This document shows positions 22,852 to 31,318 of a stretch of DNA of 64,000 bases, one piece after another. Location of the stretch: positions 127,227 to 191,226 of the forward strand of contig JAZNPC010000066.1 of the NCBI GenBank assembly GCA_045589455.1, given 5' to 3'. Position 1 is the stretch's first letter. Each line of letters begins with the position of its first letter. The notes beneath the pieces are model-generated. The model made no database searches and had not been told where the DNA came from. It was given only the letters and a program-made list of their open reading frames with translations. The DNA comes from Kiritimatiellia bacterium. Lineage in GTDB: Bacteria > Verrucomicrobiota > Kiritimatiellia > RFP12 > UBA3636. The translations under genes and the position numbers were made by a program.

Positions 22852-24111
22852 ATGAAAAAATCATTGTTTGTTTTGACAATCGGTGCTTTAACAGCACTAT
22901 GCTTTGCAGATCCAGTTTGGGTAGAAACAGCAGATTCAACATCCTCAAAGCGTAGAGCTACTGACGGAAATTTCGTTGTTGGTTGGGAAGGCGGAAGACT
23001 GTATTATGTCTCTCATGATTCATCAGTAGGAACAGTGCTTGATATGACAACACTTTGCTCTGATATGGAAGCAGCAGCAATAGGATATCCAACAATTGTT
23101 AATACGGAAGGATTTCTCAGTAAATCTGGAATTACAAGAATTGTATTCCCAGAGGAGATTGTTACTTTTTATAAGAAAGCCTGCTCATCTATGCCAGACC
23201 TAGAGTCTGTTGTGATTTCTTCCAAGACTGCGTGGGATAAAAAATCATATCCACAGCAGTGTTTTTCTTCTTGTACAAATTTATGTTCAATTACACCTCG
23301 TGGTGTTGCAGAAACAAATGGTGTTGTATATCTTCCAGAGGGTTGCACAAGTATTGCAAACAATATGCTTCAGTCATGTAATAATGCACCGATAAAGCAT
23401 ATTATTGCTCCATGGGCTACAGCTATTACGGAAGCAGCTTTTCAATATTGCTATAATCTTGAAACAGTAACGGTTTCAAAGGATTTGCAAACTATAGAAT
23501 CTTTTGCATTTCAGAATTGCTCATCTTTTACAAATCTTATAGCAGGGGATAATTCTTTTGAGAAGCTTTCATCAATGGGAGGATCAAGATCCTTTCAAGG
23601 ATGTTCTAAGTTAGCTCAAAAGTTTGATTTTTCAAAGTCAACATTTACTTCTATAGGATCTCAGTTTATGTATGGAGCAGACAATGTTTCAGAGATTCAT
23701 TTGCCAGCGACATTAACTCAAGTATCAGGACAAGCTTTTCGTGCAGATACCCGACCAGTGCAGCGCTTGATTTATTTCTATGGTGCTCCTCCAACATTTA
23801 ATGATGGTGAAAAGCTTGCTTTAGGTAGTACAAATAATAATCCAACGCCTAGATTTATTGTATTTATCAAAGATGAGTATAAAGAGGAATGGTTGGAATT
23901 ATTTGCAACAGATTCCTTTAATGAAATAACCGATGCAGATAAGGCAAGAGACGATTATCCAACAAAGTCAGAGGTCGTAAAAGTCTCTGCAAATCGCGTT
24001 TTAGGTACTTCAACATTTATGGCTCACTTTAATAATGGAAATAAACTTTCTACATACTATGTTTGCACATTTGTTGAGCCAAACCTACCTCTTACAATTA
24101 TAATTAAATAA
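22852..24111 (+). CDS. Secreted protein (419 aa), tandem paralogue of 21526..22791.
   Basis: The first ~70 nt are nearly identical to the previous gene, giving the same signal peptide. Protein identity is ~60%. C-terminal tail ...EPNLPLTIIIK. Confidence 0.85.
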   Translation: MKKSLFVLTIGALTALCFADPVWVETADSTSSKRRATDGNFVVGWEGGRLYYVSHDSSVGTVLDMTTLCSDMEAAAIGYPTIVNTEGFLSKSGITRIVFPEEIVTFYKKACSSMPDLESVVISSKTAWDKKSYPQQCFSSCTNLCSITPRGVAETNGVVYLPEGCTSIANNMLQSCNNAPIKHIIAPWATAITEAAFQYCYNLETVTVSKDLQTIESFAFQNCSSFTNLIAGDNSFEKLSSMGGSRSFQGCSKLAQKFDFSKSTFTSIGSQFMYGADNVSEIHLPATLTQVSGQAFRADTRPVQRLIYFYGAPPTFNDGEKLALGSTNNNPTPRFIVFIKDEYKEEWLELFATDSFNEITDADKARDDYPTKSEVVKVSANRVLGTSTFMAHFNNGNKLSTYYVCTFVEPNLPLTIIIK

Positions 24112-24153: not shown

Positions 24154-27100
24154 ATGAAAAGAGCACAAAATATATTTCTAGCATTTTTTGCTTTATTTCT
24201 GATGGCACAAGAAGCAAATGCTACTGTGTATAGACCAGGTTTCCAACAGTTCAGATATAGCTGTGCTAAGGACAAGGAAGCTGATTTAACAGTTACCTAT
24301 GATTCTATTACAGATGCAAATAAACGTGATATTACAGCCACAACACTCATGGCAAGCATCAATGGCACAGGTAGTGTTGTTAATCCACTTACTGGTAAAA
24401 CTTGGAATTGGTCAGACAATACCACCTTTGGCTATGAATCACAAATTTGGTTGGAGCCAGGTACTTATACCTTCTGGGGACGCTATGATGATGGTGGTGC
24501 AGTTCTTATCAATGGTGATGTGATTTATACACATGGTGCAAAATCAGGTTATAATGAATCTCCAGCTTCAGGAGATTTTGTTGTTACAAAAGCTGGTTGG
24601 TATGATTTCCGTGGCTATGTATGGGACTGGTCTGGTGGTAAGAACCCTATGGGAGAAGCTAAGAGTGCTATCCAAATGAAAAAGGATGGCGGAGCCTGGA
24701 TTATCAATATGGAGGGTGTTCCTGCTCGTTATGCAACAGGTGTAGAATATTTAGAAATCCAAAAAGCTGTTGCTTCTGAAACAGAAGGTTGCTTTGATGT
24801 GACTGTTGCTGCAACATTTCCAAGTGGAACAACGGCTCAGGTTTGGGCATTAGCTACAAATGGTAATGTTGGTCATTTACCTAAAGATAAATGGAGTTCT
24901 TCTTCTGAAGCACAGTCTATAACTAGTGATGGAACAACACAAATTTTAACTTTTACAGTCGATGCTTCTGCTCTCGGAAATCCATATGTTGTTGCATATT
25001 CAGAAAATGTTTATACAGATATTTTGACAGAGGAATCTGCAGCAAATCCAGATTTTAATTTAGAAAAAGCATATTCTTCACTTGTTCCTGTGGCTACCGC
25101 TGCAGCAGGCTATATAATAATTGATGAAGTTAAGTATTTAGATGTTGATATATTTACAAATATTGATAGTTTTGGTGTGGGAGCAACTGGTGTTGAGGGA
25201 ACAATTGAGGTTAGTACTTCAGTAGATTTCTCTAATCCTATAACTGTAGAATTAGGCTCTTTAGCTTTTGGTGCTTCACTACATACTATCTCGGGTTTAA
25301 CAACGAATGTAACCTATAATATTCGCCTTGTGATGGTCAATAGCGAAGGAGCAACAACATATACAGATCCTGTAGAGTTTACAACATTGAATCCTCAACC
25401 TGCGATTATTACTTCTACGCTTTATACCACAGAGTATAATGTGTTTAAACCAACTGTAATACTTGAGTCTTATGGTGCTGGTTCTACCACAGCAACAGTC
25501 AGCTATCAAGTTTCTACAACAGAGGATTTCTCTGATATTGTAATAGAACAAGAAGTTCCAAATGCTATGCTTGGGCAAGGGGTAGAGATTAAAATTAACA
25601 AATTAGATGACGGTTCACCACTTGTTGGAGCAAGTACTTACTACTTCCGCCCAGTTGTTGTTAATGAGTGGGGGCTTGTCACCTATGGTGATACAATTAA
25701 AGCACAATTGGCTGATACTATTATTACCTATAATGGATTTGGGTATAATAAAACCGATGCTGGTTTAGAGCTTGTTGCCTATGTCACATACGTTCTAGAA
25801 GATGCAATCTTTGATGCAACCCTAGAAATCAACAATGTTGTAGTTAAAGAGTGGAATGGTATAAATGCTGCAACTACCTTAGCATATACTATAGAAAATG
25901 ATTCACTAAAATCTCAAAATACTGCAAAACTAACATTTGATATCACAACAAATAATGGCCAAACCGTTGAAGTGCTGGAGGAAGAGTTTATCAAGAATCA
26001 GCAACGTGTTATGGCTTTTAGCTCAATTGCAGAATTGGATAATAATGATGCAAGCTATACAATAGCTAAGATTGGTGATGTGATTAAGATGCCTAAGCTC
26101 ATCGACGATAACGAAAATTATGTTGCTGGTGATACTCGCGTGGCAAGGCTCTTAGAAGATGGTAATTCTATTGAAATTATCGGTCATGGATTCACTAAGA
26201 TTACAAAGCGCATAGTTGATCCTGCCTCTGGAAATATAACGCTAGAGCGTGGTCTTGTGGTTGTTCCTCCAACTCCAGCAGGTGAGGGCAATGTTTATAT
26301 GCTAATCATTCCTCAGGCAGATAGATATTGGGATACAACTCACTGGAAAAACTTAACCAATCCAGAGGCTGGTGGCTATCCTTCTAAGAAGGATGATATC
26401 GCTATGATTTTTATGTATGGCACAAAGAGTATGTTTGTTAATACTGATATTACAGTAGGTCAGATTTGGATTGGTGTAGAAGGAGGAAACTTCTACTTAC
26501 GAGGACAACAAGGCGGCGAAGGAGCTAAAACAGTCACATTTGAGCGTAGCGATAAAGAGATGCCTCTTTTCAGAATTTCTGGTTTAGAGCAGACAGATGG
26601 CGTTGTTCTTCCTTGGGCATTGCCACACTTTTATATTCAACCAAGCTTAAAAACCCCTCTAATATTTGACTGTTCAAATGATTTATTATTTGATGCAGGA
26701 TGTCCTTTTGATCCTTTAAGTAGAGATGATGTAACAGGTAAGTCTCTTCAGAGAGTTTCATTAGAAACAGGATTTATTTTAAATATACCAAAGGGAGCAA
26801 GGGTTGTTTTTGATGGAACAAATGCAGGCAATAGAGATGGTGATACCCAAAGAGGTAATGTAACCTTCCGTTTTTCGAGTAACGCTTTTGTTGGAGAGGG
26901 AACAGTTGATTATAATGGACCAAGTAGTGTGTGCTTTACTCCAGATGCATCAGATTTTAATGGTGTATTTGATTTGACCCACATGAATAAGTACGATTCC
27001 TTTGGAATTGGAGATCGTGGTGGTGGTGTATACATGCTATTCTGGGAGGGCAGTCAACCAGGAGCAAATGCTTCTCAGCGTCTTGAGGGGCATATTGGCT

Positions 27101-28419
27101 TAGGGTCTTCTTCTAATGTTTATGCTTGGAATGATTCCTTTGGTATTATTAACTGTGGATCGGCTCACGGATATGGTTCATATGGCCCAGTGCCTAATCA
27201 CTTTGCCCCTAAAGCATTCTATTCGCGCGGTGGTGGTATAAATATTAATAATCAGAATAATGGAGATTGGGCAGCTAAGGGAATTCTAGATTCTATCTAT
27301 GCTTCTGAGCAACTTGTTCTTGAGGATGGTTTATTGTGCGCAAATTCAGAACCAACAGATGCGGCTAATTATCCAACAAATTCTCTATTATTTGCAGAAG
27401 TAAGCAATCCAGACGGAAAAGGCGTTTTTGCTGTTAATTTCAGGCATATTAGAGAGTCAAGCAACCAATCTACTGTTACTAATGGTGTTTCAAAATATAA
27501 GGGAAGAGTTCAAATTGGAAACTTCCAAGATATAGCAATTGGTGAAGGCTCTTCAGAAAATGCAAAAATTGTCCCTTGGATAGTAAATGCTATTGGTGGT
27601 TCACAATTTTGGTATTTTGCAAAAGCAGACGAGGATGGATTCTTGCTTCCAGCAGGTTATCCTTCAACAGAAAACCTAAGAAATTTCGCTTCAACTGCCA
27701 ATGCATACTGCGTAAATGGAAACTCCTTGAATCTATTGCAAGATAAGACTGTTAATTCTCTAGTTCTAAAGGGGCTTACTGGAGATAGGTCAACATTGGG
27801 TGAGGGTATGACTGCAACAATTACCTCTGGTGGTCTAATCTTTACTTCTGATATTTCTCATATTGATTCAGAAGAGGTTTATAATGCTGGAACACGAGGT
27901 AATCTAGTATTCCCTAATCGAGCATTTATCTTCGCAGGTATAAAGTCAACAACTTCACCATCAGAGATTTGGGCAAATATTTCTGCACCAAAGGGTATGA
28001 CAATTACTTACCCTGGAACATTGTTGCTTGGTGGTGATCAGACTGGTATTGATAAGGAAATACATATTTCCAATAGTAATCTAATTCTTGGTAAGAATAC
28101 AACTCCAGCAGTGATTGATGTGCCAATTTCTATGCACTCTGGTGGTTCTTCATTAACTATTGCTAATGCAGGTTCTTTGTGCAAGCAGGAGATTGTATGT
28201 ACAACAGCAACTCGCCAGTTCCCTAAAATCAATGTTGCCTTTGATGGAACAGAAAATTGCCAAAAGCTAACAATTGATGGCGAAACTCTACCAAGAGGTA
28301 CTTATGGTGCAACAGGCTCAGGAGCTGAATTTATCAACGATAAAATATTTACTGGTGTAGGTATATTGAAGGTCTTGAGCGACGATTTACTACAGCCTAC
28401 AATAATTTTTATTAGGTAA
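24154..28419 (+). CDS. Giant secreted protein (1421 aa) with an N-terminal PA14-like domain and repeated beta-sandwich-like domains.
   Basis: Signal peptide MKRAQNIFLAFFALFLMAQEANA. The PA14-like motif is GTYTFWGRYDDGGAVLINGDVIYTH...AGWYDFRGYVWDWSGG. The body is long and rich in S, T, G and N. C-terminal tail ...LLQPTIIFIR. Confidence 0.85.
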   Translation: MKRAQNIFLAFFALFLMAQEANATVYRPGFQQFRYSCAKDKEADLTVTYDSITDANKRDITATTLMASINGTGSVVNPLTGKTWNWSDNTTFGYESQIWLEPGTYTFWGRYDDGGAVLINGDVIYTHGAKSGYNESPASGDFVVTKAGWYDFRGYVWDWSGGKNPMGEAKSAIQMKKDGGAWIINMEGVPARYATGVEYLEIQKAVASETEGCFDVTVAATFPSGTTAQVWALATNGNVGHLPKDKWSSSSEAQSITSDGTTQILTFTVDASALGNPYVVAYSENVYTDILTEESAANPDFNLEKAYSSLVPVATAAAGYIIIDEVKYLDVDIFTNIDSFGVGATGVEGTIEVSTSVDFSNPITVELGSLAFGASLHTISGLTTNVTYNIRLVMVNSEGATTYTDPVEFTTLNPQPAIITSTLYTTEYNVFKPTVILESYGAGSTTATVSYQVSTTEDFSDIVIEQEVPNAMLGQGVEIKINKLDDGSPLVGASTYYFRPVVVNEWGLVTYGDTIKAQLADTIITYNGFGYNKTDAGLELVAYVTYVLEDAIFDATLEINNVVVKEWNGINAATTLAYTIENDSLKSQNTAKLTFDITTNNGQTVEVLEEEFIKNQQRVMAFSSIAELDNNDASYTIAKIGDVIKMPKLIDDNENYVAGDTRVARLLEDGNSIEIIGHGFTKITKRIVDPASGNITLERGLVVVPPTPAGEGNVYMLIIPQADRYWDTTHWKNLTNPEAGGYPSKKDDIAMIFMYGTKSMFVNTDITVGQIWIGVEGGNFYLRGQQGGEGAKTVTFERSDKEMPLFRISGLEQTDGVVLPWALPHFYIQPSLKTPLIFDCSNDLLFDAGCPFDPLSRDDVTGKSLQRVSLETGFILNIPKGARVVFDGTNAGNRDGDTQRGNVTFRFSSNAFVGEGTVDYNGPSSVCFTPDASDFNGVFDLTHMNKYDSFGIGDRGGGVYMLFWEGSQPGANASQRLEGHIGLGSSSNVYAWNDSFGIINCGSAHGYGSYGPVPNHFAPKAFYSRGGGININNQNNGDWAAKGILDSIYASEQLVLEDGLLCANSEPTDAANYPTNSLLFAEVSNPDGKGVFAVNFRHIRESSNQSTVTNGVSKYKGRVQIGNFQDIAIGEGSSENAKIVPWIVNAIGGSQFWYFAKADEDGFLLPAGYPSTENLRNFASTANAYCVNGNSLNLLQDKTVNSLVLKGLTGDRSTLGEGMTATITSGGLIFTSDISHIDSEEVYNAGTRGNLVFPNRAFIFAGIKSTTSPSEIWANISAPKGMTITYPGTLLLGGDQTGIDKEIHISNSNLILGKNTTPAVIDVPISMHSGGSSLTIANAGSLCKQEIVCTTATRQFPKINVAFDGTENCQKLTIDGETLPRGTYGATGSGAEFINDKIFTGVGILKVLSDDLLQPTIIFIR

Positions 28420-28583
28420 GTAGTAGGTAAGAGTAAAGTTTATAATTAAAGCAGCTATGGACACATAAAGTCTGTAGCTGCTTTTATATTTAATATCGTA
28501 ATTATGCTAAAATATGTAGCGAAATGAGTTTTTTCATAAAAAATGCTTGCGTTTTTACCCAGTTATATGAGAAAATTAACGCC

Positions 28584-28649
28584 ATGAAAACAAATATTAC
28601 TTTTAATCAATTCAATTTACGACTTACAAGCCTTACATTGCTTAGCTAA
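28584..28649 (+). CDS. Candidate leucine leader peptide (21 aa, MKTNITFNQFNLRLTSLTLLS).
   Basis: Five of its last ten codons are Leu. It lies 150 nt upstream of leuA and directly abuts the 5' arm of a predicted antiterminator. Confidence 0.35.
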   Translation: MKTNITFNQFNLRLTSLTLLS

Positions 28650-28695
28650 TGCGGGGATTGTGCGTATTGTATTTGTGTTAATAGTAGTAAGAAGA

Positions 28696-28733
28696 GCCCC
28701 GCAGGATAATTTATTAGCTCCTGGGGGTTTTTT
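28696..28733 (+). terminator. Attenuator terminator hairpin upstream of leuA.
   Basis: Stem gcccc-g-cagga / tcctg-gggg(t) with a 12-nt loop, followed by TTTTTT. The alternative pairing tgcgggg (28650-28656) with ccccgca (28697-28703) would prevent its formation. Confidence 0.5.
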
Positions 28734-28799
28734 AGTAACTCCGTCAAGCTCCTTGGAGTTGTTGGTTATAGACGGAGAAAATAGTAGGAAAGAAGATAT

Positions 28800-30344
28800 A
28801 TGAGTACCCAAGATTCAAGAAAAATTCGTATTTTTGATACAACACTTCGCGATGGTGAGCAATCTCCTGGTTGCACAATGAACCTACGTGATAAGCTTCT
28901 TGTTGCTGAGATGCTCGAAGCAATGAAGGTAGATATCATTGAGGCCGGCTTTGCTATTGCTTCTACTGGTGACTTTGAGTCTGTTAATTCCATTGCAAAG
29001 CTTGTTAAGAATTCTACAGTTGCAAGCTTGAGTCGTGCATTGGTAAAGGATATTGATTGTGCATGGGAGGCAGTAAAGGTTGCTCCTCGCCCACGCATTC
29101 ACACATTTTTGGCAACATCACCACTACACATGGCTGCAAAGCTACGTAAGACACCTGATGAGGTTTATGCTCAGGCAGTAGAGGCAGTGAAGTATGCACG
29201 TAATTTGTGTGATGATATTGAGTTCTCACTAGAGGATTGCTCTCGCAGTGAGCGTCCTTTTATCTACAAGGTTGTTGAGGGCGTAATTGCAGCAGGTGCA
29301 ACAACAGTTAATATCCCAGATACAGTTGGCTATGCAATCCCTGAGGAATTTGGTGCATTGATTCGTGATATTCGCAATAATGTTCCAAATATTGATAAGG
29401 CTGTTATTGCTGTACACTGCCACAATGATTTGGGCTTGGCTGTGGCAAACTCATTGGCAGCTATCGCAGCAGGTGCAGGTCAGGTTGAGTGTACTATCAA
29501 TGGTATCGGCGAGCGTGCTGGTAATGCAGCTATGGAAGAAATTGTTATGGCTCTAAAGACACGCCATGAGTGCTTCCATGCTCACACTGATATTGATACA
29601 ACAAAGATTTATGCAGCAAGTCGCTGTGTTTGCAATGTCACAGGCAGTCGCGTACAGGCCAATAAGGCAATTGTTGGCGAGAACGCATTTGCTCATGAGT
29701 CTGGAATCCATCAGCATGGCGTAATGGCAAATCCGTTGACCTATGAGATTATGACACCGGAGTCAATTGGTGTTCCTCGCAATAAGATGGTATTGGGTAA
29801 GCATTCCGGTAAGCATGCATTTGCTCAACGTCTTGAGGATTTGGGCTTCCATTATGATGACGATTATGTAACCGAGCTATTCACAAAGTTCAAGGCATTG
29901 GCAGATCGTAAAAAGACAGTGTCTGACGCTGATATTGAGGCATTGGCAAGCAAGGCTGGTGTAAATGAGGTTCAGCTAGCAAAGCTAGATCGCTTTAGCT
30001 CAATGGCAAGTAATGCAATTACCTCAGTTAGCACAATCCGCTTAGCAGTCGGGGATCGCTTGATTGAGAAGGTTGCAACAGGCGATGGACCAATCAATGC
30101 TTCCTTCCGTGCAATTTGCGATATTCTGGGTGTGACCTGCCGTTTGGAGGACTTCCAGCTTTCAGCAGTCACAGAGGGTATGGATGCACAGTGCGAGGCA
30201 AGTGTTCGCGTGCTATTTGAGGACGGCAGAACATATCGTGGTAGAGGTGTTTCTACCGATATTGTTGAGGCATCTATTCTTGCATATTTGCAAGCTATCA
30301 ATACTGCAATTAGCGAAGGTGCTCCAAGTATTCTAACTCACTAA
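28800..30344 (+). CDS. leuA: 2-isopropylmalate synthase.
   Basis: 514 aa with the HMGL-like TIM-barrel (IFDTTLRDGEQSPG, HCHNDLGLAVANSLAAI) and the C-terminal LeuA dimerisation/regulatory domain. Confidence 0.95.
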   Translation: MSTQDSRKIRIFDTTLRDGEQSPGCTMNLRDKLLVAEMLEAMKVDIIEAGFAIASTGDFESVNSIAKLVKNSTVASLSRALVKDIDCAWEAVKVAPRPRIHTFLATSPLHMAAKLRKTPDEVYAQAVEAVKYARNLCDDIEFSLEDCSRSERPFIYKVVEGVIAAGATTVNIPDTVGYAIPEEFGALIRDIRNNVPNIDKAVIAVHCHNDLGLAVANSLAAIAAGAGQVECTINGIGERAGNAAMEEIVMALKTRHECFHAHTDIDTTKIYAASRCVCNVTGSRVQANKAIVGENAFAHESGIHQHGVMANPLTYEIMTPESIGVPRNKMVLGKHSGKHAFAQRLEDLGFHYDDDYVTELFTKFKALADRKKTVSDADIEALASKAGVNEVQLAKLDRFSSMASNAITSVSTIRLAVGDRLIEKVATGDGPINASFRAICDILGVTCRLEDFQLSAVTEGMDAQCEASVRVLFEDGRTYRGRGVSTDIVEASILAYLQAINTAISEGAPSILTH

Positions 30345-31222: not shown

Positions 31223-31283
31223 TTTTATTAATCTAAAGAACTTTGTGTTTATAACAAAGGATTTGCATTTTATAATAAACCTT

Positions 31284-31318
31284 AGAACTGCGGCAGTATT
31301 GTCGCAGTTCTGTTTTTT
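31284..31318 (+). terminator. Strong Rho-independent terminator.
   Basis: Perfect 9-bp stem agaactgcg/cgcagttct followed by gtttttt. Confidence 0.75.

Follow-up and report, generated by a model that had tools for sequence, protein, structure and literature searches.

A leucine-rich leader ORF with alternative RNA hairpins upstream of leuA in Kiritimatiellia: a likely ribosome-mediated transcription attenuator

The leader that precedes leuA in a Kiritimatiellia bacterium is most probably a ribosome-mediated (leader-peptide) transcription attenuator which, judging from sequence comparison and folding models, would couple leuA to the supply of charged tRNA-Leu. It lies in a window of 64,000 nt, that is the whole stretch of DNA analysed (contig JAZNPC010000066.1, positions 127,227-191,226 of the forward strand, assembly GCA_045589455.1). 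Ribosome-mediated attenuation by Leu had been proposed from the letters of this window, and the proposal is now supported by the same module in 15 of 16 related leuA loci, by covariation of the two alternative helices (2:3 and 3:4) and by folds in which a ribosome footprint was masked.

Results

Organisation of the leuA leader in the window

The window leuA stands alone, with no adjoining leuBCD. Downstream it is followed, with no terminator between, by a DUF4886 gene, after which a terminator is found at 31283-31312. Directly upstream of the leader region lies a 1421-aa ORF (24154-28419) for which no Pfam or NCBIfam match was obtained; it has its own terminator hairpin (28448-28484, a perfect 15-bp stem) and is itself preceded by a BspA-type leucine-rich-repeat protein (22852-24111). 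The elements between this terminator and leuA, and leuA itself, are the following.

28546-28576, + strand: predicted sigma-70 extended -10 promoter (conserved columns of alignment A1)
28546-28552, + strand: -35 element cTTGCGT, with TTGCGT at 28547-28552 (promoter consensus)
28568-28569, + strand: TG of the 18-nt spacer (promoter consensus)
28571-28576, + strand: -10 hexamer GAAAAT (promoter consensus)
28584-28649, + strand: leader ORF of 21 codons, MKTNITFNQFNLRLTSLTLLS and stop, from ATG 28584 to TAA 28647-28649 (sequence)
28617-28619, + strand: regulatory Leu codon L12, TTA (sequence)
28623-28625, + strand: regulatory Leu codon L14, CTT (sequence)
28632-28634, + strand: regulatory Leu codon L17, CTT (sequence)
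28638-28640, + strand: regulatory Leu codon L19, TTG (sequence)
28641-28643, + strand: regulatory Leu codon L20, CTT (sequence)
28618-28641, + strand: segment 1, 5' arm of P1 (anti-antiterminator), codons R13-L20 (MFE of the full leader)
28645-28666, + strand: segment 2, core tgcgggg at 28650-28656, pairing with segment 1 (P1) or with segment 3 (antiterminator) (folds)
28691-28706, + strand: segment 3, terminator 5' arm, core ccccgca at 28697-28703 (folds and covariation)
28719-28733, + strand: segment 4, terminator 3' arm tcctggggg at 28719-28727 and U6 at 28728-28733 (folds and covariation)
28800-30344, + strand: leuA, 2-isopropylmalate synthase (NCBIfam equivalogs NF002086 and TIGR00973, E 1e-218 and 1e-209)

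The 21-codon ORF ends at 28649 with five Leu among its final 10 codons, exactly as had been claimed, and these are interspersed in the order L-x-L-x-x-L-x-L-L rather than forming a run. Given that Leu makes up 8.4% of the codons in the long ORFs of the window, five Leu in nine consecutive codons have a P of ~ 4e-4 at a fixed position. The strongest argument against chance comes from conservation, since the same ORF, G-run and terminator stand before leuA in 14 other distinct loci. No Shine-Dalgarno sequence is found on the leader ORF of the window or on any other of the 15 leaders, and several of the leader-bearing loci have an AGGA/AGGAG ribosome-binding site before leuA itself.

Segment 3 takes part in two hairpins: with segment 2 it forms the antiterminator, with segment 4 the terminator. 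The complementary segments tgcgggg and ccccgca are present at the coordinates originally given for them, and the intrinsic terminator with its U6, announced at about 65 nt before leuA, is found at a measured distance of 66 nt between the end of the U tract and the start codon at 28800. In the terminator, gccccgcagga (28696-28706) pairs with tcctggggg (28719-28727), followed by T6 at 28728-28733; the hairpin 28691-28727 folds by itself at -19.6 kcal/mol and is also part of the regional MFE, as the 28560-28745 transcript folds into a long 5' hairpin and then the terminator at -44.3 kcal/mol (z = -2.3). The antiterminator of the window is made of just 7 strong pairs closing a 40-nt AU-rich loop. 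While these two hairpins are as originally described, a third one, 1:2 (P1), had been overlooked. In P1, CCUU (28631-28634) pairs with GGGG (28653-28656) and UACG (28618-28621) with CGUA (28663-28666), so that the Leu codons are paired with the G-run and the leader acquires the full four-segment, trp-type architecture. The stop codon TAA (28647-28649) sits at the 5' edge of segment 2.

A simple terminator scan did not list the terminator of the leuA leader, because its loop is of 12 nt when 3 to 8 nt are allowed. Terminator scans did find other window genes ending in intrinsic terminators, hence the genome makes use of this type of terminator. Between the terminator and leuA, a second hairpin, CUCCGUC...GACGGAG, is seen at 28739-28777. 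In the 96% identical L001 it reads CUCCAUC...GAUGGAG, which amounts to one compensatory double change, and it is missing in more distant relatives, L161 having only ~ 24 nt in that place.

Conservation of the module across leuA loci

The comparison covered the DNA upstream of leuA in 16 distinct related loci, window included. A scan of genome contigs gave only 3 usable relatives, all Kiritimatiellae/Kiritimatiellia MAGs, whose LeuA are the closest found in genome contigs (L001 from cattle rectum at 96%, L002 at 70% and L003 at 67% identity), and a scan of metagenome contigs gave one close match with just 76 nt of upstream DNA. The remaining loci were obtained through a homologous-protein search and the contigs encoding its matches; this search returned ~ 120 LeuA clusters of 64-99% identity, and the source names, where given, are Kiritimatiellia, Lentisphaerae or Verrucomicrobiota. 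L081 was left out as its upstream DNA is too short to judge, and all related sequences are from uncultured MAGs or metagenomes.

Orthologues without the Leu-rich ORF and the alternative pairing had been named in the original prediction as the observation that would speak against it. Instead, the same module of a Leu-rich short ORF, a G-rich segment and a terminator was present in 15 of the 16 loci, the window among them, which belong to Kiritimatiellia-type MAGs with LeuA identities of 65-96%. None of the 15 leaders lacks the terminator, its U tract being weaker in L162 and L166, and the gap from the U tract to leuA is only ~ 24 nt in L161 and L175. The neighbours of the leader-leuA unit differ in nearly every lineage and include GFO/IDH oxidoreductases, a Na/Ca exchanger, ribosomal protein S16, ADP-ribosylglycohydrolase, Rnf subunits and a histidine kinase; the constant partner of the leader is thus leuA alone. 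In L171 (4054-4308), ilvD follows leuA after a gap of ~ 250 nt. When the leader was used as an nhmmer profile, neither the window nor more than 150 other loci, mostly from other phyla, gave a second copy.

The one locus of the 16 without the module, L173/L174 (68% identity, labelled Lentisphaerae), shows no leader peptide or terminator in the 145-nt upstream region. In L173 (2501-5829) leuA heads a leuA-leuC-leuD operon, and the same is true of L174. In this sample, the attenuator accompanies the stand-alone leuA arrangement.

Leader peptides and codon-level evidence

The leader peptides of the 15 loci are as follows.

Window: MKTNITFNQFNLRLTSLTLLS
L001: MKANIIVSQFSSRLTNLALLS
L161: MSSNAFRNSFRLTSLALLSSGVYGVA
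L175: MSSNAFRNSIRLTSLALLSSGVCGIA
L163: MRSQAIQTSFRLTSLALRRRGVLSFA
L166: MTTQAIRISLRLTSLALRFRGVSSFA
L162: MKQVFDSFVFRLTLLAACCGRGVCVVSF
L168 (GTG start): NGTKTAFGLRLNGLWLLGSHGNMAV
L170: MNHVITAFELRLTGLWLLSGHGIFAV
L176: MNWVVTVFELRLTGLRLLSSHGIPDV
L177: MNKGIQGFALLLTGLWLLSNHGRTGV
L171: MNDKSTVCLFRLNGLGLLRACRRVTV
L003: MHIIFANNRLTGLLAAQR
L002: MHHKSHSHRLSLPTPRIGAGVSAVA
L178: MKWITNLILPEGLLGLFSSPGRISRT

The frame is open in 15/15 leaders, one of which (L168) needs a GTG start, and stops occur in the other two frames in 12/14. The ORF counts 26 codons in 10 of the 15. Each leader has 2 to 6 Leu in the 9-codon block, usually 4 or 5, with only 2 or 3 in L002 and L003. Among the 14 leaders with the RL motif, Leu is invariant at two positions in 13, L002 being out of register at the second. 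At these two and at two nearly invariant Leu positions, the codons CTT, CTC, CTA, CTG and TTG are all used across lineages, i.e. the changes are synonymous and include CTN to TTG exchanges; likewise, the codon of a conserved Ser, AGC in the window, is TCA in L161 and L175. Third codon positions are the most variable in the conserved block (entropy 1.23, compared to 0.85 and 0.75). The residues that separate the Leu positions are free to vary, and the first ten codons, the N-terminal third, are unconstrained in sequence and constrained only in number. L178 has an unrelated peptide, MKWITNLILPEGLLGLFSSPGRISRT, which is again of 26 codons and Leu-rich and precedes RNA segments with the same logic; conservation thus concerns Leu content and geometry, not a particular peptide. 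Leu codons kept at a set distance from RNA segments are, as far as sequence comparison goes, the signature of a regulatory leader peptide and not of a functional protein.

A motif R-L-[T/N/S] is present in 13/15 leaders, with its R at codon 11 in 9 of them and a distance of ~ 33 nt to the G-run in most; L177 has L in place of the R, and L178 is without the motif. At the nucleotide level the stretch CGACTTAC (Arg-Leu-Thr; window 28620-28627, A1 columns 81-88) is near-invariant while leader GC varies widely. CGA represents just 9% of the Arg codons in the window, and the stretch is base-paired within P1 in per-sequence folds. A pairing constraint on the RNA is the simplest explanation for this near-invariance, and a slow-decoding role of the CGA-containing stretch is still conceivable.

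A promoter and a probable leaderless start

All 14 leaders of alignment A1 share, without exception, CTTG, T..G (TG) and the A and T of the hexamer. The start codon follows the end of the hexamer by 7 nt in 12 of the 15 leaders, the other distances being 6 nt in L176, 8 nt in L170 and 10 nt in L002 and L003. A generic promoter scan did not list the promoter at 28546-28576. From the promoter consensus only, we infer that transcription starts at ATG 28584 or 1 nt before. Since the leader ORF has no Shine-Dalgarno sequence and its start codon lies 7 nt past a conserved extended -10, it is probably translated from a leaderless mRNA. The ORF had been correctly placed at first, but the leaderless start had been overlooked.

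The pattern cTTGC-N17-18 (with TG)-NANNNT precedes every leader. Furthermore, a CTTGCG-N17-CACACT version precedes leuA of L173 (~ 2445-2480), a locus without the leader, and in this clade housekeeping promoters may generally take the form cTTGC...TG...NANNNT.

Position of the leader stop codon

A stop directly before the G-run, adjoining tgcgggg as originally claimed, is observed in the window and in L001 and is peculiar to them; most relatives have 26 codons with the stop ~ 18 nt past the G-run, in a GCG-UAA-UCG stretch, so that this part of the claim does not extend to the family. In the relatives, GCG-UAA-UCG pairs in P1 (with CGACUUACG) and in the inner antiterminator helix. The window and L001 keep an in-frame relic, GCG TAT at 28662-28667, compared to GCG TAA in the relatives. 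With either arrangement the terminating ribosome lies on antiterminator sequence.

Covariation of the alternative helices

Covariation of the alternative pairing in relatives had been proposed as a check, and both the 2:3 and the 3:4 helix covary. They were scored on alignment A1 (14 leaders) against 500 shuffles and slid controls. For the 2:3 antiterminator, 80.7% of the cells are paired (slid controls 35-51%), and 4 pairs are changed on both sides (CG to UA, GC to AU and UA to GC, in either direction); for the 3:4 terminator, 84.9% of the cells are paired (slid controls 39-67%), and 5 pairs are changed on both sides. In both cases, 0 of the 500 shuffles reached the score. The variants of segment 2 and segment 3 illustrate this exchange.

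Window: UGCGGGG / CCCCGCA
L163: CGCGGGG / CCCCGCG
L168, L170, L176 and L177: CACGGGA / UCCCGUG
L171: CCUGCAGGAG / CUCCCGCAGG

The independent covariation events are few, as subclades share variants, CACGGGA/UCCCGUG being common to one subclade.

A P1-type hairpin, formed by the Leu-codon block with the G-rich segment, together with the terminator is the unconstrained MFE of 14/14 leaders folded. RNAalifold gave no consensus helix for the P1 region of nine 26-codon leaders. This is due to a different register of P1 in the two main subclades (CGCCUUGC/GCGGGGUG compared to GUGGCUGC/GCAGCCAC), hence no common helix for RNAalifold. P1 is therefore a hairpin predicted only by per-sequence folds, not by covariation.

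Folds with a masked ribosome footprint

The alternative structures were compared with the transcript ended before the 3' terminator arm, which corresponds to the moment of decision, and with the ribosome footprint masked. In the window without a ribosome, P1 forms (-22.0 kcal/mol) and 0/16 arm nucleotides are paired upstream. With Leu12, Leu14 or Leu17 in the A site, 10/16 arm nucleotides pair with 28650-28661 (-17.2 to -18.9 kcal/mol); with Leu19 in the A site, 8/16 are paired; and with Leu20 in the A site or the ribosome on the stop codon, the 2:3 pairing is gone. These shortened transcripts display the switch that had been predicted, in which a ribosome at the stop blocks the antiterminator arm and a stall at Leu codons frees it.

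L001, L161, L175, L162, L168 and L177 show the same masking behaviour as the window. In L163, L166, L170, L176, L171 and L178, the ribosome-free shortened transcript already favours the antiterminator. The branch in which no translation means termination is thus not general, and according to the folding model the default state without translation may differ in these six leaders.

Full-length equilibrium folds keep the terminator under all masks, with 15/15 pairs in the window. Given that the terminator wins at full-length equilibrium, the switch must be kinetic, like that of classical attenuators; and as attenuation decisions are co-transcriptional, this result was not counted against the model.

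Proposed mechanism

Transcription would start at or next to ATG 28584 and give a leaderless mRNA, whose 21-codon Leu-rich ORF would be translated by a ribosome as RNA polymerase moves on. When Leu-tRNA is scarce, the ribosome would stall with Leu12, Leu14 or Leu17 in its A site and cover segment 1. Segment 2 would then be left free to pair with segment 3 once the latter has been made, and this 2:3 pairing would prevent the terminator from forming, allowing leuA to be transcribed. When Leu-tRNA is plentiful, the ribosome would reach the stop at 28647-28649 and cover segment 2; segments 3 and 4 would pair, and transcription would end at U6 (28728-28733). With no ribosome at all, segments 1 and 2 would pair in P1, and termination is predicted for the window in this case too.

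Discussion

Alternative explanations

Part of the leader ORF is highly conserved in its nucleotides, CGACTTAC being near-invariant with a CGA codon that is rare in the window and being paired in P1, and the ORF has no Shine-Dalgarno sequence. These features could point to an untranslated RNA switch that responds to a small molecule, a protein or uncharged tRNA, the short ORF being incidental. We regard such a switch as very unlikely, given that no Rfam family was matched even at E<=10, T-box and all riboswitches included, and that, its hairpins apart, the leader of 150 nt shows no complex fold that is conserved. Moreover, the ORF is open in every leader, with a conserved length and a fixed distance to the promoter, its N-terminal third is unconstrained, and it shows synonymous Leu changes (CTN to TTG and back), a Ser codon-family switch and stops in the other frames, all of which argue against such a switch. 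L178 in particular retains a Leu-rich 26-codon ORF and loses CGACTTAC. The R-L-[T/N/S] motif in 13/15 leaders, at a mostly fixed distance from the start (R at codon 11 in 9 leaders) and from the G-run (~ 33 nt), would also be expected of a sequence-specific arrest or sensor peptide of the TnaC/SecM type, whose R-L-T-x-L would act in the ribosome tunnel and possibly sense free leucine or another signal instead of tRNA-Leu charging. However, L177 has L for R, and L178 lacks the motif yet keeps the Leu block and the RNA logic, which weakens R-L-T as a universal arrest motif; the residues between the Leu positions vary freely, and the pairing of the motif nucleotides in P1 explains their conservation at the RNA level. 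An arrest peptide is, in consequence, a highly improbable reading, rated just below the RNA switch.

The least probable explanation of all is that the hairpin just ends a separate small gene or sRNA, or stops part of the transcripts constitutively, the 7-mer complementarity being due to chance and leuA having its own downstream promoter and escaping regulation through the hairpin. Such a layout would find some room in the 66-nt spacer of the window, with its additional hairpin between the U tract and leuA, but the ~ 24 nt of L161 and L175 leave no room for a promoter. Furthermore, the ORF, G-run and terminator are linked to leuA in 15 loci despite differing upstream neighbours, the 2:3 pairing covaries, and the leader profile matches nothing else in the window or in the more than 150 other loci. 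Attenuation by a translated Leu-rich leader hence stays the preferred reading. A more ambitious version of it joins three propositions: the leader as the founding example of a family of leaderless Leu attenuators specific to the phylum Kiritimatiellota (PVC group); a near-invariant block of Arg (CGA, rare), Leu (CUU) and Thr codons acting as a programmed slow-decoding or arrest site which sets the sensitivity of the switch; and leaderless initiation by 70S ribosomes at the first transcribed nucleotide, which would enforce transcription-translation coupling because the ribosome loads only on nascent RNA. Taken jointly, these propositions are improbable, if less so than the three alternatives above.

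Significance

For Kiritimatiellia, a lineage of gut and sediment bacteria that has been little studied and is for the most part uncultured, the leader gives leuA a concrete cis-regulatory annotation which can be tested, and it would add a PVC-group example to the phyla with leader-peptide attenuation. It predicts a conserved promoter type and leaderless translation in the clade, and the 15 leader sequences are material for an Rfam-style family, i.e. a candidate new RNA/leader family. The mechanism itself is textbook trp/leu-type attenuation and brings no change to how attenuation is understood.

Among the papers listed by a full-text literature search of incomplete coverage, none links leader-peptide attenuators with Kiritimatiellia or Verrucomicrobia, and both the leader family and the phylum appear uncatalogued in this respect. 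The original statement that such attenuators are far less catalogued outside Proteobacteria is fair in general terms, but they are known in Actinobacteria, Firmicutes and Deinococcus (PMC1262725, PMC2965389, PMC5794164, PMC4007540).

Comparison with known systems

Rfam gave no relevant family for the whole window at gathering score or for 28350-28900 at E<=10, what was matched being noise from miRNA and sRNA families over the terminator hairpin next to it. Leu_leader (RF00512) and the leu/phe leader (RF01743) were rejected, with no match at gathering score in the window or at E<=10 in 28350-28900, and so was the T-box leader (RF00230), which is not matched even at E<=10 and compares with a leader of only ~ 150 nt here.

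The enterobacterial leu attenuator consists of a Leu-rich ORF, leuL, of segments pairing as 1:2, 2:3 and 3:4, and of a terminator before the first gene of leucine biosynthesis. The Kiritimatiellia leader is like this leu operon (leuL, RF00512) and the trp-type model in its Leu-rich ORF, its four segments and its terminator. It differs from leuL in that it has no similarity in sequence or by covariance model, its Leu codons are interspersed instead of four in a row, its ORF has no Shine-Dalgarno sequence and is probably leaderless, it precedes a stand-alone leuA and not leuABCD, and its host belongs to the PVC group. The way in which the position of the ribosome decides the outcome of attenuation has been summarised elsewhere (PMC4007540).

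A leader peptide without a ribosome-binding site, beginning at or next to the transcription start, would be shared with Deinococcus deserti and Corynebacterium. In D. deserti 14 leaderless leader peptides have been predicted with transcription starts mapped by RNA-seq (PMC4007540), and the ilvB leader of Corynebacterium diphtheriae is likewise leaderless (PMC5784534). The leaderless leaders of these genera precede genes for amino-acid biosynthesis or tRNA synthetases, and a Corynebacterium leu leader, MNRANLLLLRRGGSQA, is found upstream of leuA (PMC4007540, PMC5784534). In contrast to those starts, mapped by RNA-seq, the present one is deduced from a conserved extended -10 promoter; the sequences show no relationship, and the phyla differ.

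In Staphylococcus aureus, the ilv-leu operon has a leucine-rich attenuator peptide (PMC5794164). This leader and the lactococcal leu/phe leader (RF01743) resemble the one described here in their Leu codons, in the control of branched-chain amino-acid genes and in being found outside Proteobacteria, whereas the Kiritimatiellia leader has no Rfam match, precedes a single leuA instead of a whole ilv-leu operon and is unrelated in sequence. The actinobacterial LEU element, which has been described as a pseudoknot with a base stem made of a Leu-codon run and the leuA Shine-Dalgarno box, exerts translational control with no obvious terminator (PMC1262725). It is alike in having an upstream ORF with Leu codons before leuA, and it was rejected as a model for the window since the Leu codons pair there with the G-run (28645-28666), not with the leuA RBS region (~ 28785-28799), and a terminator intervenes. 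In the Kiritimatiellia leader the Leu codons have as their partner a G-rich segment that lies 150 nt upstream of leuA, with an intrinsic terminator as the output.
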